A stretch of DNA of 64,000 bases from a virus (IMGVR_UViG_3300028886_000031:216485-280484); one strand, 5' to 3'. Counted from the stretch's first letter, positions 30,433-64,000 are shown. The notes: a model not told the origin generated them from the sequence alone. A program made the numbers and translations.

Positions 30433-30446
30433 CGAAAGGAACAGCA

Positions 30447-31609: not shown

Positions 31610-31628
31610 AAACGAAAGGAAACAAACA

Positions 31629-32795: not shown

Positions 32796-32836
32796 AAAGT
32801 TATATGTAAAGTATATATATTAATTTCTGTACTAAT

Positions 32837-40980: not shown

Positions 40981-41306
40981 AACCATTCCTTTAATGATTT
41001 GATTGCACATTTAACATCATTTTCTGTACAATCACGAGATAAAGGACCATTTCTATGTCCTAATAAACCAAATTGTGAAGCACTACTTTGTGCCTTATCT
41101 GGATAAAATGTAAATCCACATCTATGTTTTGTTGGTTCACCTCTATATACAATAATGTATGTTTCTCCTCTAGCATTGTGTTCTGATATATGAACATCCT
41201 TATGGTTAGATATAATATTTTTAATTTCAGAAACACCTTTATCATAAATTGGAAATTCTGATTCTTGTGATGTTACAGATTCTAAAAGGAAAGAGTATTG
41301 TTTCAT
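40977..41306 (-). CDS. CTS-tagged internal-protein candidate (109 aa)
   Basis: N-terminus MKQYSFLLESV. Confidence 0.55.
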   Translation of the reverse strand: MKQYSFLLESVTSQESEFPIYDKGVSEIKNIISNHKDVHISEHNARGETYIIVYRGEPTKHRCGFTFYPDKAQSSASQFGLLGHRNGPLSRDCTENDVKCAIKSLKEWL

Positions 41307-42717: not shown

Positions 42718-43523
42718 AATTTTGATGTATTTATCAATATTGGATCCATAAAAGTTTTATGATTTATTTTATCGAATTGTAATTCATGGTTGAATTCTGG
42801 GAACTTTTTAAATATGGAATTATATAACATATCTATATTCTTTATATGATGAATATGACTTGTTCCAAACCGTCCTGTTTTAAACCATTTTGTTCCATCT
42901 TTCATAAAATCATTTTTAATATAAAAGAATTTCTTTTTATTTATATCAAGCTGTGCAAAATAAGATTCTTTTGTATAATAAATATTTTTACATGATGATA
43001 AAGTAATATCAATAAATATAGGAGCTATTTTTTTCATATATCTCATGTTATTATATGGATATATATGCTTCCTGTTTTTCATTATATCACATACTTCATT
43101 ATAGCAATCTGATGTAATGAGATAAGCCTGTGAACCACCTAATCTTATATAATTATCAGAATAGATACAGCCGCACTCATTATCATGTATTAATGTTTTA
43201 GGATCAAAACCAATCTTTACATACCCAAAAGATAACACTCCTTTAAAATTTTTATTAGATAATATATCTAATGTATTATATAATCCACTTAGGTCATTAC
43301 ATGGCCAAGCATCATCTTCATACATTATAAAATAATCTAATTTATTAGGAATTGCATATCTTTTTATAAAATCATATATATTTTGCGAAAGACCTTTTGC
43401 TGCATATAATATTTTCGGGACCGGAATACCACTCTGTGTAAATACAGTTTTTAAAACATTATATTTATAAGCATTTCTTGTTAAAACAAAAGAATTCTTT
43501 CCTAAACTAAACATATTTAACAA
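42714..43523 (-). CDS. glycosyltransferase family 25-like (paralog of 39179-39856), no CTS
   Basis: SFVLTRNAYKYNVLKTVFTQSGIPVPKILYAAKG and FIMYEDDAWP parallel the 39179-39856 motifs. Confidence 0.45.
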   Translation of the reverse strand: MLNMFSLGKNSFVLTRNAYKYNVLKTVFTQSGIPVPKILYAAKGLSQNIYDFIKRYAIPNKLDYFIMYEDDAWPCNDLSGLYNTLDILSNKNFKGVLSFGYVKIGFDPKTLIHDNECGCIYSDNYIRLGGSQAYLITSDCYNEVCDIMKNRKHIYPYNNMRYMKKIAPIFIDITLSSCKNIYYTKESYFAQLDINKKKFFYIKNDFMKDGTKWFKTGRFGTSHIHHIKNIDMLYNSIFKKFPEFNHELQFDKINHKTFMDPILINTSKL

Positions 43524-43534
43524 TCTTTCTAATT

Positions 43535-43915
43535 TTACACTACATGTCTTCGTTTAATACTATTAACAACATGCTTCACATAATCCGGTGCAAAACATTT
43601 AACCCATCTTTCCTTATCGATATATCCGCACCAAGCATCCAAGCACATTAAATGCGAAACATGCTCTTTAAACACTTTAATAATTTCTTTTAAGAATTCT
43701 TTCTTTGAGTCAGGTAAATTTTTGAAAGAATCTGATCTTGTATAATTATTCTCTAAATAATCAATAGCGTTTCTAATATCTCCTGTACAATCATCTTCGC
43801 TATTAGAATTCTTAATATCATTAGCAACTTTTGCAAATGGAATCATTTCACAATCTTCTTCTGTACAAAAATTAGAGAATGAACTAGATTCTGTTATAAA
43901 TGAATATTGTTTCAT
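43535..43915 (-). CDS. CTS-tagged internal-protein candidate (126 aa)
   Basis: N-terminus MKQYSFITESS. Confidence 0.55.
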   Translation of the reverse strand: MKQYSFITESSSFSNFCTEEDCEMIPFAKVANDIKNSNSEDDCTGDIRNAIDYLENNYTRSDSFKNLPDSKKEFLKEIIKVFKEHVSHLMCLDAWCGYIDKERWVKCFAPDYVKHVVNSIKRRHVV

Positions 43916-43916
43916 A

Positions 43917-44153
43917 TTACTTATTTTCCTTTAAAAAATTTCTATATGATTCTGAAATATCTATCCAACTTGTTCCACTTCTACCAAAATATTGGTTAGA
44001 ATCAGATTTTAGAACAATATATCCAATATTATCCTTGAAATTTGAGGATTCTATCAGTTTATCAAATTCGTCCCAATCTTTAATAGCTCTAAAGAATTCT
44101 GGAGCACCATTTAGATCTTTAAGAGTATATGCCTTATTACTTTCCATTTTCAA
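43917..44153 (-). CDS. hypothetical protein (78 aa), no CTS
   Basis: ORF track. It sits between CTS genes. Confidence 0.45.
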   Translation of the reverse strand: MKMESNKAYTLKDLNGAPEFFRAIKDWDEFDKLIESSNFKDNIGYIVLKSDSNQYFGRSGTSWIDISESYRNFLKENK

Positions 44154-44544
44154 TCTCCTTATTCAACTTAACAATCATCTTATGCATCCAATCAAAATCA
44201 ATATCTTTCCAAGTTTTGCCGGATGGTATTGTTAAATTTCTTTCTATTGGTTTAATGTAATGTTGTACTTCTTTTTCATCACCATGTAAATATGGATTAT
44301 CTTCTGGTGTTTTATACATGTAGAATTTTACATTTAAAGTGTTACCGTTAATACGAATAGAAATTTCTGCTCTATTATGACCTTTTGTTTTGGTGTATGA
44401 ACAATAAGTTTCACCACCATCTCCACCAGAAGAACATTTCCAACCTTTAATGCTTCCTAATGCTTTATCTACAATATCAGTAGTAATTGGAAAATCACCA
44501 AACCAAAGTTTTTCTGATTCCGTTAAAAATGAGTAATATTTCAT
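44137..44544 (-). CDS. CTS-tagged internal-protein candidate (135 aa)
   Basis: N-terminus MKYYSFLTESE. Confidence 0.55.
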   Translation of the reverse strand: MKYYSFLTESEKLWFGDFPITTDIVDKALGSIKGWKCSSGGDGGETYCSYTKTKGHNRAEISIRINGNTLNVKFYMYKTPEDNPYLHGDEKEVQHYIKPIERNLTIPSGKTWKDIDFDWMHKMIVKLNKEIENGK

Positions 44545-44915
44545 ATCGGTATCTCTCCATGTATAGCATCAGAAGCATTTTTTATAAAACCTCTTTTGCC
44601 TTTAGCAGTTTTTAAAATAACATCACCAAGTTCTTTCGTATGCACTACATCTTCCGGTATTATTGTTTCCATACCCATTTTCATCCCTTTTTGTAATTGT
44701 TCTTTCCAATTTACTTTTTTTGTTGGATTTAAGACTCTATGTACAACAGCTGGTCCCAATCTTGTAGGCATATCTGGATGATTCTTTAGATATGATTGAG
44801 GAACTTTAACAGATCCAGCACCAATAGCCCCAAGAAGAGATAATATTCCAGCTACACCACTTTTAATTTTTCCTTCTTCTAATATTGTAGGATCTAAGAA
44901 TGAATATTGTTTCAT
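44541..44915 (-). CDS. CTS-tagged internal-protein candidate (about 124 aa; start at the internal MKQYSFLDPT)
   Basis: The ORF track begins MKAMKQYSFL. The conserved block starts at the second Met. Confidence 0.5.
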   Translation of the reverse strand: MKQYSFLDPTILEEGKIKSGVAGILSLLGAIGAGSVKVPQSYLKNHPDMPTRLGPAVVHRVLNPTKKVNWKEQLQKGMKMGMETIIPEDVVHTKELGDVILKTAKGKRGFIKNASDAIHGEIPI

Positions 44916-44948
44916 AGCTTTCAATCTATAATATAATTTTATAGTATT

Positions 44949-45739: not shown

Positions 45740-46378
45740 ATGTATAAAATAACTTTACTTATCCTTTTTCCACTTATTCTATTTGGAAATGAATATTATC
45801 TTCCTACCAATAATCTAATTATTTTGAAACATAATACGTATACTATTGGCTATAATACCAATACACTTCAAGCAGCATGGGTGCAATATGTTTTAACATC
45901 AAATCAACTATGTTCTACAGTTAAATTCAAAAGAACTGATGATTTTAGACCGGATCCTTTATTAACAAACATAAATTGTTTTGTTGTAAAACCTTCTTAT
46001 TATAATAAAACTGGATATGATAAAGGACATTTATGTCCAGCACAAGATAGATCTTATAATAAAGAGGCGACATCAGAAACATTTTACATGTCCAATATGA
46101 GTCCACAACTTCCTGGATTTAACAGAGGGTCTTGGAAAAAATTAGAAGAATGGACTAGACAATATGCAATCACAAACGGAAATCCTGTTACAGTTGTAAC
46201 AGGACCAGTTTTTATGGAATATGAAATACATGATTTACATAAACACATTGAATTAAGAGATGGTCACAAGATATGTGTTCCAAATCAATATTTTAAAATA
46301 TTGTTAACAAAAGAATTGGTAAATGAAAGTGAATGTATTACAAACAAGATTATGTTTCTAATGGAGAATAAACAATGA
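45740..46378 (+). CDS. DNA/RNA non-specific endonuclease (NucA/EndoG beta-beta-alpha-Me family) with signal peptide
   Basis: YDKGHLCPAQD matches the (F/Y)DRGH(L/Q)xPA active-site motif. SNMSPQ resembles the SN(I/M)xPQ block. The N-terminus LLILFPLILFG is hydrophobic. Confidence 0.65.
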   Translation: MYKITLLILFPLILFGNEYYLPTNNLIILKHNTYTIGYNTNTLQAAWVQYVLTSNQLCSTVKFKRTDDFRPDPLLTNINCFVVKPSYYNKTGYDKGHLCPAQDRSYNKEATSETFYMSNMSPQLPGFNRGSWKKLEEWTRQYAITNGNPVTVVTGPVFMEYEIHDLHKHIELRDGHKICVPNQYFKILLTKELVNESECITNKIMFLMENKQ

Positions 46379-47082
46379 CAACATTGCCAATAACATTCAG
46401 TACGCATAACAGAACAGAATATGCAACAACATGTCTTAAAAAATTAATAGAAAATTTGAAATTTGATGGAGATATTTATCTTTATATATGTGACGATAGA
46501 TCCACAAAAGAACACATTAATTCATTAATAGAAACATTAAGAACATGTAATTTTTCAAATTATGAAATAATATCTTGTACAGAAGAACATTATGGTTATG
46601 GATATGTTTTAAATACAGCTTTAGATAAAGCATATTCTTATAGTGACGTAGCATTAACAATGGAAGATGATTGGCTTCTCCAAACTAAAACAGATTTTAA
46701 TATACCAGTTAATATGTTACTTAATAACAGTGATAAATATGCTGGAATTAGATTATGTGTAAAAGAAATAGATGGATTAATTCATAACAATTTACCAAAT
46801 AATTTTTTTATGTTTAAAAATGTTCCGAGATTATATTTTGCACATTATGTTTTTCAATGTATGCTAAGACATAAAAAAATATTTGAAAAAATAAGATTCC
46901 TAGAAAATACATTTCCACAACGTGCAGAGTTAGATTTAAAAGACAAATATAAAAAAATAGTTTTAAAACCTAAATTAAATCATTTATTAATGTTAAATTA
47001 TATTCTTCCCGATGGATCTCCTATATTTAAACATATAGGAAAAATTTCGACAATGCCAGGCAATAGAAATAATTATAGATAA
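46375..47082 (+). CDS. glycosyltransferase family 2-like
   Basis: PITFSTHNRTEY...LYICDDRSTKEH resembles the GT2 N-terminal pattern (xxIPxYN....DDGSTD). Confidence 0.45.
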   Translation: MTTLPITFSTHNRTEYATTCLKKLIENLKFDGDIYLYICDDRSTKEHINSLIETLRTCNFSNYEIISCTEEHYGYGYVLNTALDKAYSYSDVALTMEDDWLLQTKTDFNIPVNMLLNNSDKYAGIRLCVKEIDGLIHNNLPNNFFMFKNVPRLYFAHYVFQCMLRHKKIFEKIRFLENTFPQRAELDLKDKYKKIVLKPKLNHLLMLNYILPDGSPIFKHIGKISTMPGNRNNYR

Positions 47083-47101
47083 CAAATTAAAATTTGAACT
47101 T

Positions 47102-48778
47102 ATGAAAATAGCTGTAATTACTCATTTTAATTATAATTCTAATTATGGACAGAGATTACAAAATATATCTCTTGTTACATATCTTAAAAATATTTATCAA
47201 ACAGAAGATATATATACATTTGCATATGATATTCGCGGCTATAAATTAGAAAAAATAAGACATACGGATATAGAAGATAAATATCTAAAATTAATACAAT
47301 TAGATTTTAAAGATCCAAATACATTTATTAATTATGATTTATATGTATTTGGAAGTGATCAAGTTTTTGCATATGCGAAATGGATGTCACAAAATATTAA
47401 AGATATGTTTTATGGAAATTTATTTATAAGATATGGATTTAAACATTTTATATCATATTCATCATCTGCTAATTCACATTTAGATAATTATAAGAAATAT
47501 GTATGCAGTAATTTTAAATATATTTCATTTAGAGAAAAAAATGATGTATTAAAATATAATATTCCAAATAGTATTTATAATATAGATCCTGTATTTTTAC
47601 AGTCTAAAGAATTCTGGGAAAGTTTAGAAAAGAAACCGAATTTTATTAATGAAAATGAAATATTTGATTTTGAATATTCTATAGGAAGAAAAGATTTTGA
47701 GATTACAAAAAAAGATGGTATAAAATACATACATATTTATTTTAATAATTATATTAAATCTAATTGGGTTGGTTATGGTGAATTCCTTTGGTTGATACAT
47801 CATTGCAGAAAATTAATAACATCTAGTTTTCATGGTTTTGCATTTGGTATCATATATCAAAAACCATATATAGAATTTAAACATAATTATAGAATAGATG
47901 ATTTAATAGAAATTTTAAATATAAAATTTGATAATAATGTTATTAATTATGACGAAATACAAGAGAATATTAAAAAAGAACAAGAACGTTCAAAAGAATA
48001 CTTTTTGAAATCTTCTGTTTTTAATTATTGTTGTTACTCTAAAGATAAATATATACATGATAATTCTACATCTGGTGGAGTTTGCCCAGAATTGGCTAAA
48101 TATGTTTTTAATAACAATGGTATTGTTTATGCTGCTAGATATAATAATGATTTTACAAAAGTAATAATAGATTCTGTGGATAATTTGGAAGATTATTTTA
48201 AATATTTTGTTAAATCAAAATATAATTTTAGTTATATGCCTAAATTATCAATTATTAAAGAACAATTAGAAAATGGAAAATTAATTCTGTATATTGGTAG
48301 TCCATGTCAAATTCTAGCATTAAAAACATATCTTAAAAAAGATTATGATAATTTAATACTTGTAGATTTTGAATGCCGAGGTTTTTCTACATCTAAAAAA
48401 TTAGAAAATTTTACCAAAAATATAGAATCGAAATATGGATCTAAAATTAAAAATATTGATTTTAGACCAGATCATAGAGTTGATGGAGTATTAGTTGAAT
48501 TAAATGATGGTAGAACTATTAAATACAAAGTCTCTGTATTTAGAGACTTTGTATTTAGAAGTTTAGAAAAATGCCAAGAATGTAAATTTGATCATGGAAC
48601 AATATCTTATTCAGATATTACTGTAAGTGATTTTTGGTCTAATTCTAAAAATAAATGGAAGCTCGGCAAAGAATTTACACCAGAAAATGGATGTAATCAT
48701 GTAAGAACAAATACATTAAAAGGTTTTATTTTCTTTAATAAAATCAAAGATAAGATATTCTACAAACAATTAAAATAA
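47102..48778 (+). CDS. polysaccharide pyruvyl transferase-like protein (558 aa, two-domain)
   Basis: N-terminal MKIAVITHFNYNSNYGQRLQNISL resembles the PS_pyruv_trans N-terminus. The C-terminal half has a CxxGF/Cys-containing domain. Confidence 0.4.
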   Translation: MKIAVITHFNYNSNYGQRLQNISLVTYLKNIYQTEDIYTFAYDIRGYKLEKIRHTDIEDKYLKLIQLDFKDPNTFINYDLYVFGSDQVFAYAKWMSQNIKDMFYGNLFIRYGFKHFISYSSSANSHLDNYKKYVCSNFKYISFREKNDVLKYNIPNSIYNIDPVFLQSKEFWESLEKKPNFINENEIFDFEYSIGRKDFEITKKDGIKYIHIYFNNYIKSNWVGYGEFLWLIHHCRKLITSSFHGFAFGIIYQKPYIEFKHNYRIDDLIEILNIKFDNNVINYDEIQENIKKEQERSKEYFLKSSVFNYCCYSKDKYIHDNSTSGGVCPELAKYVFNNNGIVYAARYNNDFTKVIIDSVDNLEDYFKYFVKSKYNFSYMPKLSIIKEQLENGKLILYIGSPCQILALKTYLKKDYDNLILVDFECRGFSTSKKLENFTKNIESKYGSKIKNIDFRPDHRVDGVLVELNDGRTIKYKVSVFRDFVFRSLEKCQECKFDHGTISYSDITVSDFWSNSKNKWKLGKEFTPENGCNHVRTNTLKGFIFFNKIKDKIFYKQLK

Positions 48779-48846
48779 ACAAGATTTGCCATTAGTGATG
48801 GACATAATGAAAACGACTAAATCTAATTAAAATCAACTATGCTCCA

Positions 48847-50652
48847 CTATTGCATTTCATATAAACATTCTAATAATTTATCATTATTATCTTTAGAATT
48901 TATTGCTAATCTTATAAACTCGGAATTAGAAAAACCTTTTTTATGAGAACAATCTTTTATAAGAAATGATTTTTTCCATAATCTTTTTAATAATGATTTT
49001 ACATTAAAAGGTTTATTTACTCTACATAAAACATAATTTCCTTCTGATGGGAAAACAGTTAAGAACTTAATTTTAGAAAGTTCATTAATAAACCTATAGC
49101 GTTCATATATAAGTTTTTTACAACTTATTTTATATTCACTATCATATCTATCTAAAATTTGAAGGAAAAATTCACCTATAGAATTAATATTCCATATAGA
49201 AAGATGTTTTTTTATTGTGGATATTATCTCTTTATTACCGCTTGCTATAAATCCTAATCGTACTCCTGGGATACCATAACTCTTAGATATAGATTTTATA
49301 ATACTGACGTGTTTATTAGCATACAAAAAAACATTATTTAATAATGTATAATTATCAATAGCAAAATCCATAAAAGATTCATCTATTAAAATAGATATAT
49401 TATTATTTTTAGCCCATATTACAAGTTTAAAAATATCTTTTTTAGATATAAAATTTCCAGATGGATTATCTGGATTTATTAGAATAATAGAAGATAATGA
49501 CTTATTATTAAAATATTGTATAATATCATCTACTGTATATCTAAATCCATTAGATTGTGGGGCGTTAAATACAATTTTACGATCGTCACTAATTCTGTTA
49601 GAATATTCTTCAAATGTAGGATATATAAAGCCAACTTTACCTTTGCTATTATTCATCCATATATTAATTATTTCAGATGCGCCATTTCCAACAGCAACAA
49701 ATTCATTTTTTAAATTAAAAATTTTAGATACTAATAAAGAGTTAATGTTTTGACCAGATGGATATTTTCTAATAAGATCATCTAGAGAATTTTTAACTTC
49801 CAAAATCATTTTCTCTGATGGATAATATGGATTAACGAGATACGTATAATCTTTAATATTTGGATATCTCCAATAGCCACCATAACGTTCTGATATTTTT
49901 TTAATTTGTGTATCTGGTTTACAAAATATAGATTCCGCAATATTTAAGTCTTGTATATCATCGATTTCATACCATTTCTCATCATTTAATGGCAATGCTT
50001 TAATTAACTTTTTATCTATAGACGTAATTATTTTTAAAACTTGTTCATAATATTCATTATTACTAATAGACTTAATATATACATCTAAAAATGGTACAAG
50101 ATTATTTTTAGAAAATTCTTTAGAAAATTTATATATATTTACAGTTTTATAATAAGAATCTAAATAATTATAATCAAATTTTGTTTTATCTATAAAATTT
50201 ATAATATTATAATCGTTATCCATTTGAATACAAGTACCATCCATCCAGTTCTGATACTTATCTACAACGGCAACATTTTCATATTTAGATTGAATAAGAT
50301 TTGTAATTATACTATCTTGAAAAATAATATCACTTTCCAATAAAATTGTATCATCTTTAATTAATTCATCAGAAGCTATTTTTAAGGAATATATATTATT
50401 TGTTTTGTGATAATCTAAATTTGAAATATATTGTATTGGAATATTGTTCCATTTATTACCTAGATATTTTTCAAGATTTTCTTTTTTATATCCATCTACT
50501 ATTATTATCTTATCTAGGTTAATTTTGGACAATTGATTTAGCATTCTATCTATTAATCTAACGCCATTAATTTTTACCATACATTTTGTATTATTTTTGG
50601 TAAAATTCTTTAAGCGTTTTCCCATTCCAGCTGCTAATATTAATGCTTGCAT
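48847..50652 (-). CDS. bifunctional sugar-phosphate nucleotidyltransferase / class I-II PLP aminotransferase-fold fusion
   Basis: N-terminal MQALILAAGMGKRL is the nucleotidyltransferase signature. C-terminal AVGNGASEIINIW...KSISKSYGIPGVRLGF is aminotransferase/CobD-like. Confidence 0.5.
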   Translation of the reverse strand: MQALILAAGMGKRLKNFTKNNTKCMVKINGVRLIDRMLNQLSKINLDKIIIVDGYKKENLEKYLGNKWNNIPIQYISNLDYHKTNNIYSLKIASDELIKDDTILLESDIIFQDSIITNLIQSKYENVAVVDKYQNWMDGTCIQMDNDYNIINFIDKTKFDYNYLDSYYKTVNIYKFSKEFSKNNLVPFLDVYIKSISNNEYYEQVLKIITSIDKKLIKALPLNDEKWYEIDDIQDLNIAESIFCKPDTQIKKISERYGGYWRYPNIKDYTYLVNPYYPSEKMILEVKNSLDDLIRKYPSGQNINSLLVSKIFNLKNEFVAVGNGASEIINIWMNNSKGKVGFIYPTFEEYSNRISDDRKIVFNAPQSNGFRYTVDDIIQYFNNKSLSSIILINPDNPSGNFISKKDIFKLVIWAKNNNISILIDESFMDFAIDNYTLLNNVFLYANKHVSIIKSISKSYGIPGVRLGFIASGNKEIISTIKKHLSIWNINSIGEFFLQILDRYDSEYKISCKKLIYERYRFINELSKIKFLTVFPSEGNYVLCRVNKPFNVKSLLKRLWKKSFLIKDCSHKKGFSNSEFIRLAINSKDNNDKLLECLYEMQ

Positions 50653-50697
50653 TTATATCACCTGTATATATTTCTGATGATTTAGCCCATGAAATAT

Positions 50698-51846
50698 TTA
50701 TATTATATAATCTTTATATTCTTCTTGACCCAATATCAAATTAATAATATTATCTGTTGGAGTTTTTCCATTTGGATATTTTTTACAGTATTTTTCTATG
50801 TGTTCTTTTCTAATATCACGCTTTATATCATTTCCATCTATAACATTTTGAACGAATGTTCTTAAACTATCGTTCGGACCACATAATTCATGACTGTTAA
50901 TAGCATCTTTGCATATTTCTGTATGATTAGTTTTTAAGATATTCATAGACAAATCATTTGTCATATAACAAACTGGTTTATCCATATAAAGATATTCACA
51001 TTTAAATGATCCACAATCATGAATCATTGCATCTGAATATCTGAAATATGGAACATAATTTTCGGAACAATCTATAGTGAATAATTCAGCTAAATAATCT
51101 AACTTATTAAATATATCTTTTACAATATTCATTGGCAAAAATTTATATATTCTATTTGTTAGTCTACACCAACTATAATATAATAAAGGATGTGGTCTTA
51201 TTATAAAATCAACTTCTGAGTTAAATTCTTTTAATGAACAAATATCTTTATATCTGTTTAAAAAGTCACTCTTGTCGACTTTGTTACTACGGCCTAATGT
51301 CCAATGAGGACAAATCAATATACGCTTTTTTGTACTTGGTTCTAGTGCATATTCATCTTTCCAAGGATCTTCAAGATGTTCTTTGGGAATATTAAGGACT
51401 TCTTCGAAAGGATTTCCTGTTTCTACTATATGATTAGGTTTTTGATTATAATCTCCTTTTCTACATATACCAATTAAACAATCCTTAAACATCTTATAGT
51501 AAGAGCTATCTGTATCAAAAGCATATGGAACAAATAGAAATTTTCTATTCTTAAGAATAGTATTCATTGTAGAAATATCACAATATCTTTCTTTATGAGG
51601 ATCCGATGGAATTATCAAATCAAAATCATTATAATTATCTATTGTAATATCATATATAGATTTTGTTTCTATAACATTAAAACGCTTATGTTTCTTTAAC
51701 TTTTCAACTAATGGCTCAATTTTAGATTTGAGTTTATCATAAACAAATTGTGTTCCATCTACCTTCGTATTTCCTTTATATCTAATTACACAAACATTGA
51801 TTTTATCTTTAGAACGAATATTGTCTAATATTTCAGATCTTGTCAT
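50698..51846 (-). CDS. CDP-alcohol/glycerophosphotransferase-like (TagB/TagF family?) protein
   Basis: ILICPHWTLG resembles the IL(Y/F)APTWR motif of Glyphos_transf. The start was moved to the internal Met MTRSEILD, which has RBS TGAGGTA 8 nt upstream and avoids an 83-nt overlap. Confidence 0.4.
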   Translation of the reverse strand: MTRSEILDNIRSKDKINVCVIRYKGNTKVDGTQFVYDKLKSKIEPLVEKLKKHKRFNVIETKSIYDITIDNYNDFDLIIPSDPHKERYCDISTMNTILKNRKFLFVPYAFDTDSSYYKMFKDCLIGICRKGDYNQKPNHIVETGNPFEEVLNIPKEHLEDPWKDEYALEPSTKKRILICPHWTLGRSNKVDKSDFLNRYKDICSLKEFNSEVDFIIRPHPLLYYSWCRLTNRIYKFLPMNIVKDIFNKLDYLAELFTIDCSENYVPYFRYSDAMIHDCGSFKCEYLYMDKPVCYMTNDLSMNILKTNHTEICKDAINSHELCGPNDSLRTFVQNVIDGNDIKRDIRKEHIEKYCKKYPNGKTPTDNIINLILGQEEYKDYII

Positions 51847-51862
51847 TTTAAGTACCTCATTT

Positions 51863-52681
51863 TTAACATCTATTAAAGAGTTTATTACATAAATTATGTA
51901 ATTCGTTATGAACATCTGATCCATTGCCAAATATTTCATGTTCAAAATTTTGAATTAATAATGGCTGTATATATTTTATTGTTTGTTTATTAATAATTTT
52001 AACAATGGCAGTTCTTCCATCTATTTTTCCTACATATTTAACTGGTATTCCCATAGCAATACAAGGTAAATATATATGCAATCTAGATGTATATACAATC
52101 TTAGCATTCTCTTTGAGATATTTCAAACGATTATATGCTACACTTTCCATTTCTAATTCTGTTCTATTATGGTGATGAACTAATTGAGTTAAAGAAACAG
52201 AATTTTTTTCTGAATGTGATTTTACAAAATTATTTCCACAATCAATAAAAATAATCTTATCATTTTTCTGATTGATATTTGAAAAATCTAATAAATTAGC
52301 CATTAATGATGGACATAATGAAACATACGAATTCGGACATTGATCCTTAAATAATTCATACGTTTTAAAGTCTCGACAACCAAATCTTTTATTAGTTCTA
52401 AGATCTTTTATTTTATTAGAGCAATGAAATCCTATATAATTATATACATCTTTCTTATTATTCCAAAATTTTGTATTTGAAGTTTCTACAGTTGAAAAAA
52501 ATCCACTCATAATCATTACATCGTTGTCTTTAAAATCAAAACGATCTATTTTATCTCTTCTTACATAATTAGAGTCTATATTATGTTTTTTTATAAAATT
52601 ACGAAGGCATAATATATAAATGAAATCACCTAAATTATGATGACGATACCTGTAATTAGTACATGAAATTGTATATATCAT
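51863..52681 (-). CDS. polysaccharide pyruvyl transferase-like protein
   Basis: YTSRLHIYLPCIAMGIPVKYVG resembles the PS_pyruv_trans C-terminal block (TSRLHAaI.Al..G.P). Confidence 0.4.
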   Translation of the reverse strand: MIYTISCTNYRYRHHNLGDFIYILCLRNFIKKHNIDSNYVRRDKIDRFDFKDNDVMIMSGFFSTVETSNTKFWNNKKDVYNYIGFHCSNKIKDLRTNKRFGCRDFKTYELFKDQCPNSYVSLCPSLMANLLDFSNINQKNDKIIFIDCGNNFVKSHSEKNSVSLTQLVHHHNRTELEMESVAYNRLKYLKENAKIVYTSRLHIYLPCIAMGIPVKYVGKIDGRTAIVKIINKQTIKYIQPLLIQNFEHEIFGNGSDVHNELHNLCNKLFNRC

Positions 52682-53475: not shown

Positions 53476-53549
53476 TGTCCAGTGATGTAATGGCAGCATA
53501 GGGGTTTTTGATACCCTTCGAGACCGTTCAAATCGGTCCTGGACAACCA
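53476..53549 (+). tRNA. tRNA-Gln (anticodon UUG), CCA encoded
   Basis: Acceptor TGTCCAG/CTGGACA. Anticodon arm GGGGT-TTTTGAT-ACCCT. T-arm GACCG-TTCAAAT-CGGTC. Confidence 0.75.
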
Positions 53550-54695: not shown

Positions 54696-55655
54696 ATGGA
54701 AAACAACAAAGAAAAGATTGCCGTGATAGTCGGCAGATTCCAAGTAGCTGAACTTACTCAAGGTCACTTGGATTTATTTAGAAAAGTTATAGATGATGAC
54801 TATGGAAGTATACTTCTTGTCCTAGGTTTATCACCTACAAAATGTACACAAAGAAATCCATTAGATTTCGAATCTCGTAGATTAATGTTCGAGGAAGAAT
54901 TTCCTGGGAAACTTACTATACAATATCTAAGAGATGAAGCTAGTGATTCTGTATGGTCTGTTAATTTAGATCGTATAATAGATGATATACGCGGAAATAG
55001 AGATGTTGTTCTTATAGGAAGTAGAGATTGTTTCTATGATTGCTATGATGGATGTTATAAAAATAATTTTATAGAATATGTTCCTAAAGTATATACAAGT
55101 GGAAGTGAACAGAGAAAATCACTTTCAAGACAGATTAAATCCAATAAGTATTGGAGAGCTGGTTGTATTTATGCCACAATGAACCAGTATCCATCAGTAT
55201 ATGCTACAGTAGATTGTGCTATATTTAACGATATGTCTCTAGATAAAATTTATTTAGCTAGAAAGGAAAATGAATATTCATATAGATTTGTAGGTGGATT
55301 TAGTTCTCCCACGGATTCTAGTTTTGAAGCAGCAGCTAGAAGAGAGGCAGCAGAGGAAACAAAACTAGAGACTACAATCATTCAATATATTGGAAGTCGT
55401 AAAATAGATGATTGGCGTTATAGATCAGAGACTAATAAAATTATTACCAATTTCTATGCTATGGTAAAGAATTGGGGTAGAGCACAACCTAGTGATGATA
55501 TTAAGGAATTATATCTCGTAGATTTTAATACATTGAGTGAGAATGATATTATGCCAGAGCATAGAGAGTTATTTAATATGCTCTGCAATTGGAGAACCGC
55601 ATATATACTTAAAAATCCAAGTATAAAAGATGCAGTTATTAAACAACTCGATTAA
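54696..55655 (+). CDS. natV: bifunctional NMN adenylyltransferase / Nudix hydrolase (NadM-Nudix, NatV-type)
   Basis: N-terminal IAVIVGRFQVAELTQGH is the archaeal-type NMNAT motif. The C-terminal Nudix box is GGFSSPTDSSFEAAARREAAEETKLE. Confidence 0.7.
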   Translation: MENNKEKIAVIVGRFQVAELTQGHLDLFRKVIDDDYGSILLVLGLSPTKCTQRNPLDFESRRLMFEEEFPGKLTIQYLRDEASDSVWSVNLDRIIDDIRGNRDVVLIGSRDCFYDCYDGCYKNNFIEYVPKVYTSGSEQRKSLSRQIKSNKYWRAGCIYATMNQYPSVYATVDCAIFNDMSLDKIYLARKENEYSYRFVGGFSSPTDSSFEAAARREAAEETKLETTIIQYIGSRKIDDWRYRSETNKIITNFYAMVKNWGRAQPSDDIKELYLVDFNTLSENDIMPEHRELFNMLCNWRTAYILKNPSIKDAVIKQLD

Positions 55656-55700: not shown

Positions 55701-57149
55701 ATGGAAAATGAATTCAATATTATGTTAGCCAGTGATAGCTATAAGTTCGGTCACTGGAAGGCGTACATGCCAGATACAGAATATGTATATTCTTACTTAG
55801 AAGCACGTAAAGGTGCCAAGTTTAATAAAACATTATGGTTTGGACTTCAATCAATTATTCTAAAATATCTTAGTGGAACAGTTGTAACAGATCAGAAAAT
55901 TAGAGAAGCTAAAAGTTATATTGATTTACATCTTGGTAAAGGTGTTTTTAATGAAGATGGTTGGAGATACGTATTAAACAACTATAACGGTCGCTTACCA
56001 ATTCGTATAAATGCAGTAGAAGAAGGTAAACTTGTAGATGTTGGAAATGTTTTGATGACTGTAGAAAATACAGATCCAAATGTTCCATGGCTTACAAATT
56101 ATCTAGAAACTATATTAATGCAGGTTTGGTATCCTACAACTGTTGCAACACAAGATTGGGAAACAAAACAATTGTTGAAATATTATCTTCAACGTACTGG
56201 ATGTTCTGAAAAAGGACTTCCATTCATGTTGCATGGTTTTGGTATGAGAGCAGCAACTTCTTACGAAAGTTGTGCTCTTGCTGATGCTGCACACTTAATT
56301 AACTTTAAAGGTACAGATACAGTTCCAGCATTAAAATTTATATGCGAATATTATGGAAAAACTTTAACATGTAGAAATATTCAAGAAATACAAGAGAATC
56401 CAAGTATTGATTTTCCCGGATATAGTGTTTTTGCTACAGAACACAGCATTATGACTTCTAGAGGTGAAGCTGGTGAATGGGATGTAGTAGAAAACATATT
56501 TAAGGCATGTCCATCTGGCATATGCAGCATTGTTATTGATAGTTATGATTATAGAAGATTTATCAATACATGTGGTCAAAGATTTTACGAAACAATTATG
56601 AATAGGGATGGCAAAACCGTATTTAGACCGGACTCCGGCGATCCCATTTCTACTACATTAGACGTATTGGAATTGCTAGATAGTCATTTTGGATCCACAA
56701 AAAATGCTGCTGGATTTAAAGTTTTAAATCCAAAAATTGGCGTTTTGTGGGGTGATGGAATAGATTACAATGGTGTTCGTGATATTCTCTTTGCAATGTT
56801 TAATGCTGGATGGGCAGCAGAAAACATTGTATTTGGCATGGGTGGTCACATGGTTCAATCCGGATTAACAAGAGATACAATGCGTTTTGCATTTAAGTGT
56901 TCAGCACAATACTATAAAGGTGAATGGCATGATGTTTGGAAACATCCAATAGATATTACTAAAGCATCTAAGCGTGGTCGTTTAGCATTATTACATGTTA
57001 AAGGACAAGATGGAAATATGTTCTATAAAACCATTAGGGATTTTGAATTAAAGAATCCAAATGATAATCAGTTAAGATGTATATTTGAAAACGGATATTT
57101 ACGTGAGCGTGTATCATTTGATGATGTAAAGATAAATTCTACATTATAG
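55701..57149 (+). CDS. nadV: nicotinamide phosphoribosyltransferase (NAMPT)
   Basis: N-terminus MLASDSYKFGHWKAY and internal GFGMRAATSYESCALADAAHLINFKGTDT are NAMPT family signatures. Length is 482 aa. Confidence 0.75.
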   Translation: MENEFNIMLASDSYKFGHWKAYMPDTEYVYSYLEARKGAKFNKTLWFGLQSIILKYLSGTVVTDQKIREAKSYIDLHLGKGVFNEDGWRYVLNNYNGRLPIRINAVEEGKLVDVGNVLMTVENTDPNVPWLTNYLETILMQVWYPTTVATQDWETKQLLKYYLQRTGCSEKGLPFMLHGFGMRAATSYESCALADAAHLINFKGTDTVPALKFICEYYGKTLTCRNIQEIQENPSIDFPGYSVFATEHSIMTSRGEAGEWDVVENIFKACPSGICSIVIDSYDYRRFINTCGQRFYETIMNRDGKTVFRPDSGDPISTTLDVLELLDSHFGSTKNAAGFKVLNPKIGVLWGDGIDYNGVRDILFAMFNAGWAAENIVFGMGGHMVQSGLTRDTMRFAFKCSAQYYKGEWHDVWKHPIDITKASKRGRLALLHVKGQDGNMFYKTIRDFELKNPNDNQLRCIFENGYLRERVSFDDVKINSTL

Positions 57150-59644: not shown

Positions 59645-59929
59645 ATGAATATTCATTTTACAAATGTCAAATGGGACTGTGATAATAAAAATGATTTAAA
59701 AAAATTAGATAAAGAGTTTACTGTAGACTTATACGATATTATTCCTCAAGATGAATTTGATGATATATTATCCGATTTTATATCAGAAAAATATGGATTC
59801 TGCCACGAAGGTTTCGAATATGACTTTACATCCTCTGAGATAGAACTTGGAAAACAGTTCAAAAAGTTAATTAAGGATGTTGTCAATGAGTTAAAAGGAG
59901 ATCAAAATGAATCAACTCACACAAAATGA
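59645..59929 (+). CDS. hypothetical acidic protein (94 aa)
   Basis: ORF track. Confidence 0.5.
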   Translation: MNIHFTNVKWDCDNKNDLKKLDKEFTVDLYDIIPQDEFDDILSDFISEKYGFCHEGFEYDFTSSEIELGKQFKKLIKDVVNELKGDQNESTHTK

Positions 59930-60500
59930 TATATATCTCGTAACGACAGATTGTGAGAATATTATTAGGAATTTACGCTTAGAGTATAAACAAAAAATAA
60001 AAGAAATTGTCGATAAACAAAATGGCTTAAAACACAAACTCCTTAAACGAGTTTGTGATATAATTAATATGACATATTTAAAAAATATTGATCCAAAAAT
60101 ATTCACATATGAAGACTGCAAAGAAAATCCAGCACTTCTTGATAGGTACTTAGATGAGTCCGATGAAATTAAATATACCAAAGATGGAAAATATATGGTA
60201 TTTAAAGAAAACGGTAATTACGCTTTCAGCTCTTATGTAATACCAATTGAAGTTATATGTAATCCAGAATTGGATGAAAAGTTCTCCAAATATATAGAAG
60301 CAATGCTTAGTAAAACAGATCTAGACTTTTTAGAAAATAGATACCTTACAACTAAAAAAGATTTTGCAAACACTGAGTATGAGTACAACAAAGCAAAATC
60401 CAAATTCATAACACAATACGAAAGTATATTAGAAAATACAAAATGGTATCATCGTTGGGATGAAGTTATAACACAAGATGGTGAAAAGATATTCACATGA
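59907..60500 (+). CDS. A-type module protein (C-terminal-region motif YxxSSYVIPIEV)
   Basis: The internal block FSSYVIPIEVICNPELDEKF parallels YYVFPVEVFRYSNNIKIRDKIF in 62154-62759 and YWIFPVEVFKYPNNYKK in 63578+. Confidence 0.5.
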   Translation: MNQLTQNDIYLVTTDCENIIRNLRLEYKQKIKEIVDKQNGLKHKLLKRVCDIINMTYLKNIDPKIFTYEDCKENPALLDRYLDESDEIKYTKDGKYMVFKENGNYAFSSYVIPIEVICNPELDEKFSKYIEAMLSKTDLDFLENRYLTTKKDFANTEYEYNKAKSKFITQYESILENTKWYHRWDEVITQDGEKIFT

Positions 60501-60787
60501 GTAATAAATCTATAGAAAATTCTATATATAGAGTTTATAAAAAAGATTTACTAAAAGCATTAGAAGATAAAATAGAACGCATTAAAAAACACATAGAAGA
60601 TTTTCCCGAATCTTTCGATTATTGTGTGAGAATTAATACAAATGTATTTATGTTAGATAACAAAGTAACTTATACATCATATAAGGCTCCAACTCAAAAA
60701 GATATAGATATGTTGCTAGAACCTGATATACATATAATTTATGATAGTGTAAACAAGTGTTACATGAGGGAGGTAGTTTTTGACTAG
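60497..60787 (+). CDS. hypothetical protein (96 aa)
   Basis: ORF track. ATGA overlap. Confidence 0.45.
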   Translation: MSNKSIENSIYRVYKKDLLKALEDKIERIKKHIEDFPESFDYCVRINTNVFMLDNKVTYTSYKAPTQKDIDMLLEPDIHIIYDSVNKCYMREVVFD

Positions 60788-61181
60788 GAATGATTTTGTT
60801 TCAAATAGTTCGTCTTGTAGTTTTGTTGTTTATATTGAAACACAACAGGACTTGGATGAACTTTCTAAAATATGGAAAGATGTTAGAAAATTAACAAATA
60901 ACCATGTGGAAGTATATGATAACTTAGAAGATGCCTGCAATAGATGTGGAATGTATTTCACAACTGGATATCTAGATAATAATGATTGGAACATGATAGA
61001 AGTTGGTGAAGCCATCAATGTTTCTAGTGGTGATGATCATTATCTATATTTCGAAAAAAAATTTGATGAATTACGTGATTTGTTTACTAATAATTATAAG
61101 TTTAAATTATATCGGGACTATGATGCCCATTATTCAACAGGAATGGATTACAAAGAAAAGGAGAAAAAATCATGTTCGTAA
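60780..61181 (+). CDS. B-type module protein 1 (N-terminus MTRNDFVSNSSSCSFVV)
   Basis: Shares the N-terminal DFVSNSSS(S/C)SF block with 61384-62142 and 62756-63283. Confidence 0.55.
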   Translation: MTRNDFVSNSSSCSFVVYIETQQDLDELSKIWKDVRKLTNNHVEVYDNLEDACNRCGMYFTTGYLDNNDWNMIEVGEAINVSSGDDHYLYFEKKFDELRDLFTNNYKFKLYRDYDAHYSTGMDYKEKEKKSCS

Positions 61182-61387
61182 AATTCGAAACAGATGAAGG
61201 ATTTATACATATAGAAACATTTCAAAAAATTACGACTGGAGTTGTAGATGCAAAAAGATATACTGAAATTAATGGAATTTGTGTGAGTTCGAAATATTAT
61301 AATGATTACATTAATGCTATAGAAGACGCAATTATTTCAAAACGTCCAATGGTTGATTTAACACCAGAAGGAATGGGAATAATATGA
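61172..61387 (+). CDS. hypothetical protein (71 aa)
   Basis: ORF track. Overlaps its neighbours by a few nt. Confidence 0.4.
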   Translation: MFVKFETDEGFIHIETFQKITTGVVDAKRYTEINGICVSSKYYNDYINAIEDAIISKRPMVDLTPEGMGII

Positions 61388-62142
61388 TTAGAACAGACTT
61401 TGTTTCCAATAGTTCTAGTAGTTCATTTGTGTTAAAAACCACAAAGGACATGACTGATAAAAGTACATATGAGCAGTTTTTAAAATATTTCTCTAGCGGA
61501 AATGTTCTTGATGGATATAATGTAGAGGAATATGAAAATGCTATTGCCGATCGAACTGTATTTAGTATATTTGAGTTTGAATTCTTTACTAAATATGATG
61601 AAAAACAAAAAGTATATGATAAGTATTATAACATTCCACCAATGGAATGTTTAACGGATGGTGAAGATATAGATACAATTATAGAAAATATTTTTAAAGA
61701 TCAGAATGGTGGTTTCGAAAGCAATGGATATTTCTTCGTACACGAGGATTTTGTTTTTGAACATAGAGGGATATCTGTTATAACTCCAAAATCTATAGAA
61801 TATACTAGAAAAATACTTAAATTGATTAGAGACCAAAAATGGCAACCAGAATTATATAAAGAAAATTATTATGTTATTAAAAATCATTTTGATAGATATA
61901 AAGATGATAAAGGAAAAAGTCGTTGTAGAACTCTTAATGTAGATGAAGCAGAAACTGTTCTAAACAAAATAGAAAAAGAACTTAAAAATGGTATAAACTA
62001 CATTGTTATAGCCATGTCTTATTCTGGTGACGGAATGGGTGCTGGAAAGTTATGGTATGACAAAGATTGGGATAAAGAAAAGAGTTGTTATAAAGAAATA
62101 GAAGAAAATAATTTTGGTGAAACTTTCTTCATAGACTGGTAG
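61384..62142 (+). CDS. B-type module protein 2 (N-terminus MIRTDFVSNSSSSSFVL)
   Basis: Conserved N-terminal block. Confidence 0.55.
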   Translation: MIRTDFVSNSSSSSFVLKTTKDMTDKSTYEQFLKYFSSGNVLDGYNVEEYENAIADRTVFSIFEFEFFTKYDEKQKVYDKYYNIPPMECLTDGEDIDTIIENIFKDQNGGFESNGYFFVHEDFVFEHRGISVITPKSIEYTRKILKLIRDQKWQPELYKENYYVIKNHFDRYKDDKGKSRCRTLNVDEAETVLNKIEKELKNGINYIVIAMSYSGDGMGAGKLWYDKDWDKEKSCYKEIEENNFGETFFIDW

Positions 62143-62153
62143 GAGGTGATAGC

Positions 62154-62759
62154 ATGACAAAGAAAACAGAACAAGAACTAGAAAGTTTAAGATGTACTAA
62201 TATTGTATTAAGCATATTACGTGATAGAAGGTCTGAAAAAATTAGACATGAACGTGCTGTCAAAGCATTAGAAATAGACATGTCGAATAAGTATATGGTA
62301 AAGATAGTATCTACAATGTATGAGCTATTAACAAAATTTAAGGTCAAAGAAGATATCTCAAATCCAGTATCCGGAAACGGATTTCTTGCTAATGACAATG
62401 GATATTATACCATACTATATAATACAATAGAATTATCATGTGATGAGAAATATATTAGAATAGACGATACTTGCGGTGATTATTACGTATTTCCAGTCGA
62501 AGTATTTAGATATTCTAACAACATAAAGATAAGAGATAAAATATTTCGTGATTTTCTAGATAGATGTCGAATTGTAACGCTACAGCAATCTATAGGTGAG
62601 TCAAATCGTAGAATAAAATTCTGGGATGAAACTATAACAGATGAAATTAAAAAGAGAAATAAAAACATAGCAAAATTAGACAGACTTACAAAAAAGAAGA
62701 TCGAACCTTTATATTTAACAGAGATTAAATTCGATAACAAAAAAAGGAGAGGAACATGA
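62154..62759 (+). CDS. A-type module protein 2 (FPVEVFRY motif)
   Basis: Shares ...ILYNTIELSCDEKYIRIDDTCGDYYVFPVEVFRYSNN with the partial gene at 63578+. Confidence 0.55.
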   Translation: MTKKTEQELESLRCTNIVLSILRDRRSEKIRHERAVKALEIDMSNKYMVKIVSTMYELLTKFKVKEDISNPVSGNGFLANDNGYYTILYNTIELSCDEKYIRIDDTCGDYYVFPVEVFRYSNNIKIRDKIFRDFLDRCRIVTLQQSIGESNRRIKFWDETITDEIKKRNKNIAKLDRLTKKKIEPLYLTEIKFDNKKRRGT

Positions 62760-63283
62760 TTAGACTGGATTTTGTATCAAATAGCTCATCTAGTAGTCAT
62801 ATTGTTATTGCACATGAAATAAACAATGAGCATTTACCAATAATTATGAATATTAAAAAGATATATGTTCCATCAAAAGATTATGGCACTCATAAATTTG
62901 GCTGGGAATGGATAGATTATAAAGATTTCTGGTCTAAGTTAAACTTCTGTGCTATTCAATTACATGATTTAAAGAAATATTGTAAAGAATGGAATCAATA
63001 CGATATAAAATATTACAGAGAATATTATAAAAGATATAGATTTGATAAATGTTTAAAAATGTTACAGAAGGTATGTAAAGAGAAATTCAATTTGGATGTA
63101 AAACTTAAATTGGAATATGAGAAAAATGAAGAATGGGAATATTATATAGATCATCAATCTTCGATTGTTGAAGCTACTAATATGGACATGTTTGAAAATG
63201 AAGATACATTATATAGGTTTTTGGGTAACGAGAGAGATTCTTATATAGAAGGTGGAAATGACAATGACTGTGGAGGTTATTAA
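62756..63283 (+). CDS. B-type module protein 3 (N-terminus MIRLDFVSNSSSSSHIV)
   Basis: Conserved N-terminal block. Confidence 0.55.
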   Translation: MIRLDFVSNSSSSSHIVIAHEINNEHLPIIMNIKKIYVPSKDYGTHKFGWEWIDYKDFWSKLNFCAIQLHDLKKYCKEWNQYDIKYYREYYKRYRFDKCLKMLQKVCKEKFNLDVKLKLEYEKNEEWEYYIDHQSSIVEATNMDMFENEDTLYRFLGNERDSYIEGGNDNDCGGY

Positions 63284-63285
63284 TT

Positions 63286-63567
63286 ATGAGAAAGTTATCT
63301 AAAATAATAATTTCTATTTCTATTATATTAACAACATTTCATCATGTAAAAAATTTACATCCTACTAATATACATTACCATAATCATCCGGAAACTAATT
63401 ATAATGGCATATATTATAAACAACTTAAACTTAAATGTATAAATTGTAAAGCTACATTCTGGGAAGTTCTGCCACATGAATATGATCCTATCTTACAAAA
63501 ATATGTCTGTATAGTACCAATTCCATTATATTGTAAAAAATGTCGTGGTGAATCTATTAATATGTAG
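63286..63567 (+). CDS. hypothetical Cys-rich protein (93 aa) with N-terminal hydrophobic segment
   Basis: CINCKAT...CKKCRGES zinc-ribbon-like. N-terminal IIISISIILTTF. Confidence 0.45.
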   Translation: MRKLSKIIISISIILTTFHHVKNLHPTNIHYHNHPETNYNGIYYKQLKLKCINCKATFWEVLPHEYDPILQKYVCIVPIPLYCKKCRGESINM

Positions 63568-63577
63568 AAAGGATGTT

Positions 63578-64000
63578 ATGAGTAAGACTTTAATGCCAGC
63601 ACATAAATCTTTCAATTGGACTTCACCATCTGAAGTTTTAGATAAACCAATTCCTGATATAGATGTAGTTCAGAAAATACTTATAGAAAAGAAATGTGTA
63701 GAAGATAGATATAAAAAAGAATGTGAGAATATCAACAATAGTTTAAAAAAGAAATATGTGGCTAATGTTTTATATATAATGTGGGAACTTATTACAACAA
63801 ATAAAGATATTAAATCTAATTTCCTTATACCAATTGATGATAATGGTGAATTGCTAGAATATAGATCTGGAAGATATTTTGATTTTACGTCATTAGAATT
63901 TTCTAAAAACGGTAGATATGTACGAGTTTATGATTCATGGGGAAGTTATTGGATATTTCCAGTAGAAGTATTTAAATATCCAAATAACTATAAAAAAATG
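63578..64000 (+). CDS. A-type module protein 3 (3' end truncated by window edge)
   Basis: Open to the window end. Paralog of 62154-62759 (YWIFPVEVFKYPNNYKK). Confidence 0.5.
   Translation, partial: MSKTLMPAHKSFNWTSPSEVLDKPIPDIDVVQKILIEKKCVEDRYKKECENINNSLKKKYVANVLYIMWELITTNKDIKSNFLIPIDDNGELLEYRSGRYFDFTSLEFSKNGRYVRVYDSWGSYWIFPVEVFKYPNNYKKM

Follow-up and report, generated by a model that had tools for sequence, protein, structure and literature searches.

A conserved N-terminal serine box on a large family of phage proteins and its candidate recognition by a phage radical-SAM/SPASM enzyme

We analysed a stretch of 64,000 nucleotides of viral DNA (IMGVR_UViG_3300028886_000031:216485-280484, hereafter the window), which is a piece of a large T4-like phage genome, and focused on three genes near its end whose products begin with an almost identical block of 17 residues, referred to here as the serine box. 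The window matched exactly the sequence of the ENA contig ERZ27256887:k141_2997416 (321,653 bp), the phage genome being about 321 kb, and the phage DNA examined amounted to 81 kb, namely the window, 8.1 kb downstream of it (L001) and 9.1 kb upstream of it (L173). The three open reading frames (ORFs), B1, B2 and B3, are encoded on the plus strand and open at residue 1 with M[IT]RxDFVSNSSS[SC]S[FH]. B1 (60780..61181; box MTRNDFVSNSSSCSFVV at 60780..60830) codes for a protein of 133 amino acids (aa) with a small, rare type of body, starts with TTG and is preceded by a GGAGG-type ribosome-binding site. B2 (61384..62142; box MIRTDFVSNSSSSSFVL at 61384..61434) codes for 252 aa and has 8 close homologs, and B3 (62756..63283; box MIRLDFVSNSSSSSHIV at 62756..62806) codes for 175 aa and represents the commonest body type. 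The original prediction, made from the sequence of the window, had described three genes with a near-identical 17-residue start and a diverged remainder, and all the peptides that it quoted were found where it had placed them.

Three members of a second family, A, are located among the B genes on the same strand. A1 (59907..60500, 197 aa) is a distant member in which the family motif reads IPIEVI (YAFSSYVIPIEVICNPEL), A2 (62154..62759, 201 aa) contains FPVEVF (YYVFPVEVFRYSNN), and A3 (YWIFPVEVFKYPNN; 63578..64000) is cut by the window end and finishes 225 bases beyond it, the full gene (L001 12195-12842) coding for 215 aa. Small ORFs are interleaved on the same strand as well: one of 96 aa that belongs to neither family (60497..60787), with a homolog in the relative L040, one of 71 aa (61172..61387), and one of 93 aa whose N-terminus is hydrophobic and whose C-terminus is rich in Cys (63286..63567). 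With x standing for these small ORFs, the gene order is A1, x, B1, x, B2, A2, B3, x, A3. Scans of the nine ORFs of the region against Pfam, PHROGs and NCBIfam gave nothing above noise except a weak match of the B2 N-terminus to phrog_7397. Extending the sequence, as had been suggested in search of further modules, revealed six more B genes outside the window, none with an A gene beside it. Four of them (B4-B7; L001 14705-17342) lie side by side 2.1-4.7 kb past the window end, and two (L173 2493-3023 and 3010-3591) lie 5.5-6.6 kb before the window start, adjoining the anaerobic ribonucleotide reductase genes NrdD/NrdG. This phage consequently carries at least nine B genes, in at least two clusters about 60 kb apart. 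The strict A/B alternation proposed originally did not hold, since the order is interleaved and six of the nine B genes lack an A neighbour.

The serine box is far more frequent at gene starts than composition would produce. In a six-frame translation of the window, [FY]VSNSSS was observed 3 times against 0.0016 expected from amino-acid frequencies, all three matches being at the start of an ORF, and 200 shuffles of the window yielded 1 match in total. Among the seven local copies, the 17 codons of the box showed 108 synonymous vs 81 non-synonymous codon-pair differences, whereas the next 17 codons of the same copies showed 5 synonymous vs 338 non-synonymous ones. Moreover, in a set of 161 copies taken from 37 loci, every Ser position of the box was encoded by AGY as well as by TCN codons. 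This codon interchange, together with the synonymous turnover, indicates that selection acts on the peptide and not on the DNA, and the turnover rules out a DNA- or RNA-level signal in the box.

Throughout the family the box follows the logo MK[IVT]Rx[GD][FY]VSNSSSSS[FY][IV][VI], which in the lineage of this phage reads MIRxDFVSNSSSSSF. In 361 distinct N-termini, K was present in 84%, R in 99%, G in 56% or D in 35%, and F in 90% or Y in 7%, followed by V (98%), Ser positions at 98%, 92% and 99%, and a final F (90%) or Y (7%), the N and SSS of the logo being invariant by construction because the sequences were selected on them. Of the 455 sequences counted, 449 had a box that began at residue 1 or 2, and the phages that bear it span a guanine plus cytosine (GC) content of 0.21-0.51. 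It contains no Cys, no Glu and no invariant Gly.

The family of proteins that carry the box (family B) is almost purely viral, very large and unnamed. A profile built from seven paralogs of this phage retrieved 258 proteins at E <= 0.01, and one built from B3 and 43 relatives retrieved 5,183 representatives of 50%-identity clusters at E <= 1e-3, 803 of them at E <= 1e-10. IMG/VR held at least 597 motif stretches; in prokaryotes, represented by one genome from each of 185,579 species, 89 were found, of which 4 were confirmed, all in metagenome-assembled genomes. No name, Pfam domain or NCBIfam model was found on family members, diverse ones included, and PDB sequence searches with B2 and with a B3-type profile gave nothing significant. 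Matches of box proteins to phrog_7397 were limited to the first 20 to 76 positions (E 1e-5 to 1e-2), and this PHROG covers one box body type only. Megablast and tblastn searches of 50,697 phage records with the region, B2, B3 and a typical member returned no match, probably owing to masking of the box by the low-complexity filter and to the divergence of the bodies; when the same records were searched later with a box protein of a Klebsiella phage, 175 of them matched. The earlier statement that no such family is known can therefore be kept as regards Pfam, NCBIfam and the PDB, but the family is very large, and cultured T4-like phages, RB43 among them, encode members of it that are annotated as hypothetical proteins. 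That it has gone unnoticed is explained by the shortness of the proteins, their low-complexity start and the lack of a Pfam or NCBIfam model.

Box genes form co-directional arrays of up to 11-13 genes, and the bodies that follow the box range from about 70 to 300 aa. B1, B2 and B3 share almost nothing beyond the box. After removal of the box, the bodies of 453 box proteins fell into 75 BLAST clusters, and a comparison of the 13 largest with hhalign related only clusters 4, 7 and 10 (the B5 type) to one another and cluster 1 to cluster 3, all other pairs scoring below 7% probability. The latter link (cluster 3 against cluster 1, 92.5% probability) joins B2 with the B6 type through their C-terminal parts. 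The box is fused to at least eight body types without detectable mutual similarity. Subtypes B3, B5, B6 and B7 have orthologs in distant phages, which indicates that the array is an old set of distinct subfamilies and not a recently diversifying cassette. These data establish a family in which an invariant box, kept by selection at the peptide level, precedes highly diverse bodies. Box genes sit in blocks of small co-directional genes of large phages, and for this reason their bodies probably have accessory or host-takeover functions.

The B3 type carries an invariant polar set of its own, FGW, KxN, IDHQS and a very C-terminal GGNDN, and looks like an enzyme or a ligand binder. An AlphaFold2 model of B3 was confident (predicted local distance difference test score, pLDDT, 87; predicted template modelling score, pTM, 0.85), with residues 1-10 below a pLDDT of 50, and it found no fold match in the PDB. 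Such a confident model with no PDB counterpart may represent a new fold or a new enzyme family.

The ORFs of every locus retrieved by way of a B3-type gene were clustered, and only one other family proved to be widely common to these loci, a protein of 330-410 aa with a CxxxCxxC motif. Its invariant cysteines are C60, C68 and C71, plus C254, C279, C297 and C349. The Pfam Radical_SAM model matched two of the three enzymes tested with 33.8-35.5 bits (cut-off 29.5), and the Pfam SPASM model matched one enzyme with 23.3 bits (cut-off 21.5) and another with 19.2 bits. NCBIfam models of tungsten-enzyme, mycofactocin and sactipeptide maturases gave weak matches (E 1e-10 to 1e-3, far below their cut-offs), and the closest relative of solved structure was SkfB (E = 0.007), while phrog_7293 matched over the full length with E = 3e-93. 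Neither PHROG 7293 nor PHROG 7397 has a functional annotation, and no link is drawn between the two. In L011 (2168-4480), in L036 (2490-4710) and at the start of L002, the enzyme gene is interrupted inside the CxxxCxxC motif (..CAF / CSPAGTMV ... LVHN / CYKGN..); the insert opens with Cys and closes with His-Asn before Cys, which is an intein signature.

The enzyme and the box genes proved to be neighbours in both directions of search. Starting from B genes, the enzyme was present within 6 kb and on the same strand in 23 of 36 loci, mostly at the head of the array, although in one of the 23 (L031) it is a distant match (E = 1e-6). Starting from the enzyme, 65 of 80 IMG/VR loci held 1 to 13 box genes within 8 kb, all of them on the strand of the enzyme and often starting directly after its stop codon. 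Box genes were also present in 22 of 38 metagenome loci, many of those contigs being tiny. The enzymes of the enzyme-picked loci were 31-53% identical to the query. No third gene family was found to be conserved in these neighbourhoods.

Both components are present in cultured phages, where they can lie farther apart. In Klebsiella phage KM3 (PV833086.1), whose whole genome was scanned, two canonical box genes, at 129626-130096 and 133481-133996, are 19-23 kb from the enzyme gene (XYH46953.1) at 152825-154027, all on one strand; the box proteins are XYH46911.1 and XYH46906.1. Similarly, coliphage RB43 (HE858210.2) encodes the enzyme CCK74014.1 at 92307-93452 and has, about 20 kb away on the same strand, two box genes at 68049-68516 and 71933-72445, the box proteins being CCK73969.1 and CCK73964.1. 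The box peptide considered for the RB43 and KM3 proteins is MKIRSGFVSNSSSSSF, and the box and enzyme genes of RB43 and of the Klebsiella phages are annotated as hypothetical or only generically. In Vibrio phage D479 a box gene is 1.4 kb upstream of the enzyme gene, and in one IMG/VR contig (L031 and L070) box genes lie about 55 kb from it. The phyletic distribution of the two was nearly identical: among the 50,697 phage records, the enzyme was present in 173 and a box protein of the Klebsiella-phage type in 175, with enzyme/box counts of 110/115 for Klebsiella, 20/20 for Enterobacter, 14/14 for Cronobacter, 11/11 for Citrobacter, 9/9 for Escherichia, 2/2 for Raoultella and 2/2 for Pseudotevenvirus.

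Comparative genomics thus strongly supports a functional coupling of the box family and the radical-SAM/SPASM gene, on the grounds of a two-way conserved neighbourhood in divergent phages, a near-identical distribution in cultured phages and the lack of any other conserved partner. The SPASM enzymes that have been characterised, among them the maturases of sactipeptides, pyrroloquinoline quinone (PQQ) and mycofactocin, anSME (on sulfatases) and QhpD, target short conserved stretches within peptides or proteins. Considering these known targets, and because the box is the only element common to the clients, is N-terminal and exposed and was left unplaced by AlphaFold2, we infer an enzyme-substrate relation with the box as the site. 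Our preferred explanation, to which we give a probability of roughly 0.55, has the phage radical-SAM/SPASM maturase (PHROG 7293) recognise the box, and most likely modify it chemically, across a very large phage-specific family. The phage-encoded maturase would recognise the serine box on its client proteins, a whole set of different accessory proteins, and would give all of them the same post-translational modification. Membership features agree with such a relation in that several paralogous candidate substrates, up to 13 genes per locus, have one conserved segment, the serine box.

The more specific proposal that a dedicated radical-SAM/SPASM maturase of large phages (RB43, Klebsiella KP15-type) puts a novel modification into a Cys-free box with a run of serines is tentative, and we would rate it a little below even odds; the box would then serve as a portable modification tag on up to a dozen or more unrelated accessory proteins per genome. 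The chemistries that we presume to be candidates are oxidation of Ser to formylglycine (an aldehyde), epimerisation, and an ether or aromatic-to-C-beta crosslink that joins the flanking Phe or Tyr to the Ser/Asn stretch; the segment F-V-S presumably fits an aromatic-x-x pattern. Thioether formation is excluded, since the box has no Cys.

Several observations weigh against the proposed role of the box as a maturase site. The support consists of gene neighbourhood and co-occurrence, and the modification itself is a prediction from sequence. Because one phage is in some cases represented by several redundant loci, the locus counts given above overstate the number of independent observations. In 15 of the 80 enzyme-picked loci there was no box gene within 8 kb; these are mostly enterobacterial T4-like phages of about 175-180 kb, and at least the enterobacterial loci among them have box genes farther off. 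The box is devoid of Cys and unmatched by known SPASM target motifs, and the invariant IDHQS and GGNDN of the B3 body would also fit an enzyme with an N-terminal loop in its active site. Furthermore, no homolog of the enzyme was found in the 81 kb of this phage by a hidden Markov model search, a CxxxCxxC scan of the window and L001 and the upstream extension, nor in 20 kb stretches of the relatives L040, L041, L127 and L128. In L056, L068, L069 and L142 a NUDIX gene and a nicotinamide phosphoribosyltransferase (NAMPT) gene are followed by 2-5 kb, the enzyme and then the B array; in the window, the NUDIX (54696) and NAMPT (55701) genes are followed by small genes and then the B genes, the slot of the enzyme being without it.

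The enzyme does occur in the lineage of this phage. In L129 (GC 0.29), whose boxes read MIRNDFVSN, the enzyme is encoded 2 kb upstream of a group of five box genes, among them relatives of B3, B5, B6 and B7 at 29-43% identity. L130, L150 and L155 each have a box gene immediately upstream of the enzyme gene, and their enzymes are 61-66% identical to the one in L129. When metagenomes were scanned with the L129 enzyme, these three relatives were recovered but not this phage, and IMG/VR yielded no copy of it either. It is plausible that its own enzyme gene lies in the remaining 240 kb or so of the genome, given the 20 kb separation of the RB43 type and that of about 55 kb in L031/L070.

Under the main rival to a maturase site, the box proteins would form a single superfamily of extreme divergence, and the box would be neither tag nor substrate site but a structural or catalytic part intrinsic to it, for instance a first beta-hairpin whose Ser-rich loop binds a ligand or phosphate and which packs against the conserved C-terminal strand. 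The link to the radical-SAM enzyme would then arise from a common pathway, a shared small-molecule substrate, or B proteins acting as accessory or carrier subunits. A box that is near-invariant over thousands of clusters would be more usual for an active site than for a sorting signal, a short, conserved polar motif (GGNDN, SHH, HEG, DGG or RNG) stands at the C-terminus of many body types, the B3 type has its invariant FGW, KxN and IDHQS, and the strand straight after the box (FIVI) was modelled within the fold. Against this, profile-profile comparison of the bodies without the box finds no similarity between most types, their lengths run from about 70 to 300 aa, and AlphaFold2 did not place residues 1-10 of B3 in the fold. 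Five consecutive invariant Ser would be unusual for a binding loop, the box has no invariant Gly, and the partner enzyme is of the SPASM class, in which the enzymes characterised have peptides and proteins as their substrates. We consider this alternative unlikely, yet it deserves the most attention among the competitors.

Still less probable is a targeting or processing signal independent of the radical-SAM enzyme, serving capsid packaging, export, binding to a host hub protein or timed proteolysis. It would suit a box at the extreme N-terminus of unrelated bodies, with the first 10 residues disordered in the B3 model, in arrays that resemble the internal-protein loci of T4-like phages, and the leading MK-x-R-x-G-F is superficially like a prepilin leader. 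A type IV prepilin leader has Gly at -1, Phe at +1, Glu at +5 and then a hydrophobic helix of about 20 residues. In the box, position -1 is Asp in all copies of this phage (Gly being the residue of 56% of the family), +5 is Ser and SNSSSSS follows, so with no hydrophobic helix and no Glu at +5 the box does not qualify as a prepilin or Sec signal, and this identity was rejected. T4 internal proteins carry an N-terminal tag of about 10-19 aa, the capsid-targeting sequence (CTS), which ends in an L/I-x-E site for the prohead protease; the box, having no Glu, is no such sequence. This phage already has a separate CTS-like island, with seven adjacent genes on the minus strand (40228-44924) that all start with MK[QH]YSF[LI]TES and then diverge, and whose tag we take to resemble the sequence MKTYQEFIAE of the T4 internal proteins. 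These are probably the genes of the CTS island with which the original prediction had equated the pattern of the box, and that equation fails, the box being a different signal as it lacks a Glu-type cleavage site. What remains of the proposed targeting or processing signal is a conserved N-terminal module on unrelated bodies, best explained as a processing or modification site. In addition, sorting tags are rarely so invariant across phages of such different GC content, and the two-way linkage to the radical-SAM enzyme would be left unexplained.

We regard as very improbable that A and B constitute a diversifying two-component cassette, effector plus immunity or partner, as had been put forward for these genes. 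Both families are interleaved at 59.9-64.2 kb on one strand and tightly packed, but there is no 1:1 pairing, small ORFs intervene, no A gene adjoins B4-B7 or the two B genes before the window, and the B subtypes are old orthologous groups instead of recent variants. Family A itself is real in that A2 and A3 are clear paralogs (BLASTP E = 1e-18 over 183 residues); A1 is weakly related (E = 0.001 to A3 and 0.02 to A2), so the proposed family stands with this qualification. Among 5.8 billion proteins only 16 homologs were found, each of them from a close relative of this phage, and a family A profile had no match in 37 other B-bearing loci. The AlphaFold2 model of A2 (pLDDT 73.5) consists of helices, a three-strand meander that holds the FPVEVF strand and one long C-terminal helix, with no Foldseek match. 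We therefore treated family A as a local, lineage-specific paralog family, unrelated to B, which happens to be interleaved with it and is not its partner. Finally, the chance that AT-rich, low-complexity coding sequence has merely produced the shared blocks as an artefact is negligible, because, although the window has a GC content of about 28% and Ser and Asn are frequent in it, the observed and shuffled motif counts, the synonymous turnover at constant amino acids and the presence of the same box at GC up to 0.51 all contradict it.

The arrangement resembles systems for peptides that are synthesised on ribosomes and modified post-translationally (RiPPs), such as those of sactipeptides, ranthipeptides/SCIFF and streptide, as well as PqqE/PqqA and MftC/MftA, in that a SPASM radical-SAM gene heads or lies inside a co-directional array whose products have one short conserved segment in common and are otherwise variable, with no other conserved gene here. 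It differs from them in that RiPP precursors are peptides of 20-60 aa, whereas the box proteins are whole proteins of 70-300 aa with folded, unrelated bodies. Moreover, the box is Cys-free and Ser-rich, the array is accompanied by no protease or exporter gene, and the setting is viral. Like anSME/AtsB and QhpD, the latter acting on the gamma subunit of quinohemoprotein amine dehydrogenase, the phage system would pair a SPASM enzyme with a short N-terminal motif on a full-length protein. anSME converts Ser or Cys to formylglycine. One such enzyme may serve many scattered paralogous clients, which compares with the separation of about 20 kb in RB43, but the (C/S)-x-(P/A)-x-R motif of anSME clients is absent from the box, and the likeness in chemistry is presumed from general knowledge.

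Arrays of small, fast-evolving proteins with only a short N-terminal tag in common are also known from the T4 internal proteins; the box has another sequence with no Glu cleavage site and is kept across very distant phages, whereas T4 capsid-targeting sequences are lineage-specific, and it is tied to the radical-SAM enzyme and not to the prohead protease. Polymorphic toxins likewise have a conserved N-terminal part, variable C-terminal parts and tandem arrays, in contrast to which the box genes have no conserved partner gene and no trafficking domain, and their bodies form old orthologous groups. The searchable literature, the coverage of which is incomplete, yielded no account of the box or the family, nor of a radical-SAM/SPASM protein maturase encoded by a phage, and a setting of this kind (a maturase with tandem clients, viral, acting on whole proteins with a Cys-free serine box) seems not to have been reported there.

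Other identities for the box were considered and discarded. The sulfatase motif is absent, as noted, and the B3 model has no PDB fold match, sulfatases having an alkaline-phosphatase fold. Glycyl-radical proteins carry an R-V-x-G-[FYW] fingerprint near the C-terminus and have a non-SPASM activase; the box is N-terminal, its spacing is R-x-G-F, its Gly is not conserved and a SPASM domain is present in the partner enzyme. A PP-loop or flavodoxin-like phosphate loop, to which we presumed a resemblance, was rejected. An N-glycosylation sequon and an amyloid-type zipper were set aside, with no evidence either way.

Further features of the window and its surroundings were noted. The ENA record ends at window position 20,878 or so by coordinate arithmetic and L173 is at the other end of the record, from which it follows that the window spans the junction of a circular or terminally redundant assembly. 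Nine transfer RNA (tRNA) genes (Thr, Pro, Ser x2, Tyr, Glu, Ile, Lys and Gln) are located at 24569-32915 and 53476-53549, with small genes interspersed and three paralogous metallophosphoesterase-like genes among them (24958-25905, 28575-29201 and 29194-30018). A pair of genes for nicotinamide adenine dinucleotide (NAD) salvage comprises a NUDIX/NMNAT-like gene (54696-55655), the Klebsiella phage counterpart of which is annotated as a bifunctional nicotinamide mononucleotide (NMN) adenylyltransferase/nudix hydrolase, and the NAMPT gene (55701-57149). The phage also has a RuvC-like gene and a prohead-protease-like Peptidase_S77 gene, and NrdD/NrdG are just upstream of the window (L173). A polysaccharide-type block (46375-52681) includes a pyruvyl transferase fused to an F420-hydrogenase-beta-like domain, a nucleotidyltransferase-aminotransferase fusion and a glycerophosphotransferase-like gene, and further glycosyltransferase-like genes are located at 883-2266. 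A scan for promoters and terminators between 57 and 64 kb of the window gave a signal no higher than in shuffled sequence.

As to the window itself, its reading shifts from an effector/immunity cassette to membership of the serine-box family, with A as a mere local paralog family. If the predicted modification is real, one enzyme and one 17-residue tag would form a post-translational modification system widespread in large phages, with more than 5,000 clusters of proteins, up to 13 genes per array and phage GC contents of 0.21-0.51. It would amount to a virus-encoded, protein-level analogue of RiPP maturation, with a new substrate class and probably a new chemistry for SPASM radical-SAM enzymes, and the box could offer a portable tag with which to modify proteins enzymatically. 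Both components are present in cultured phages of E. coli and Klebsiella, so that the idea can be tested directly, and, if true, it would provide a common biochemical handle for a large slice of the "dark matter" genes of phages.

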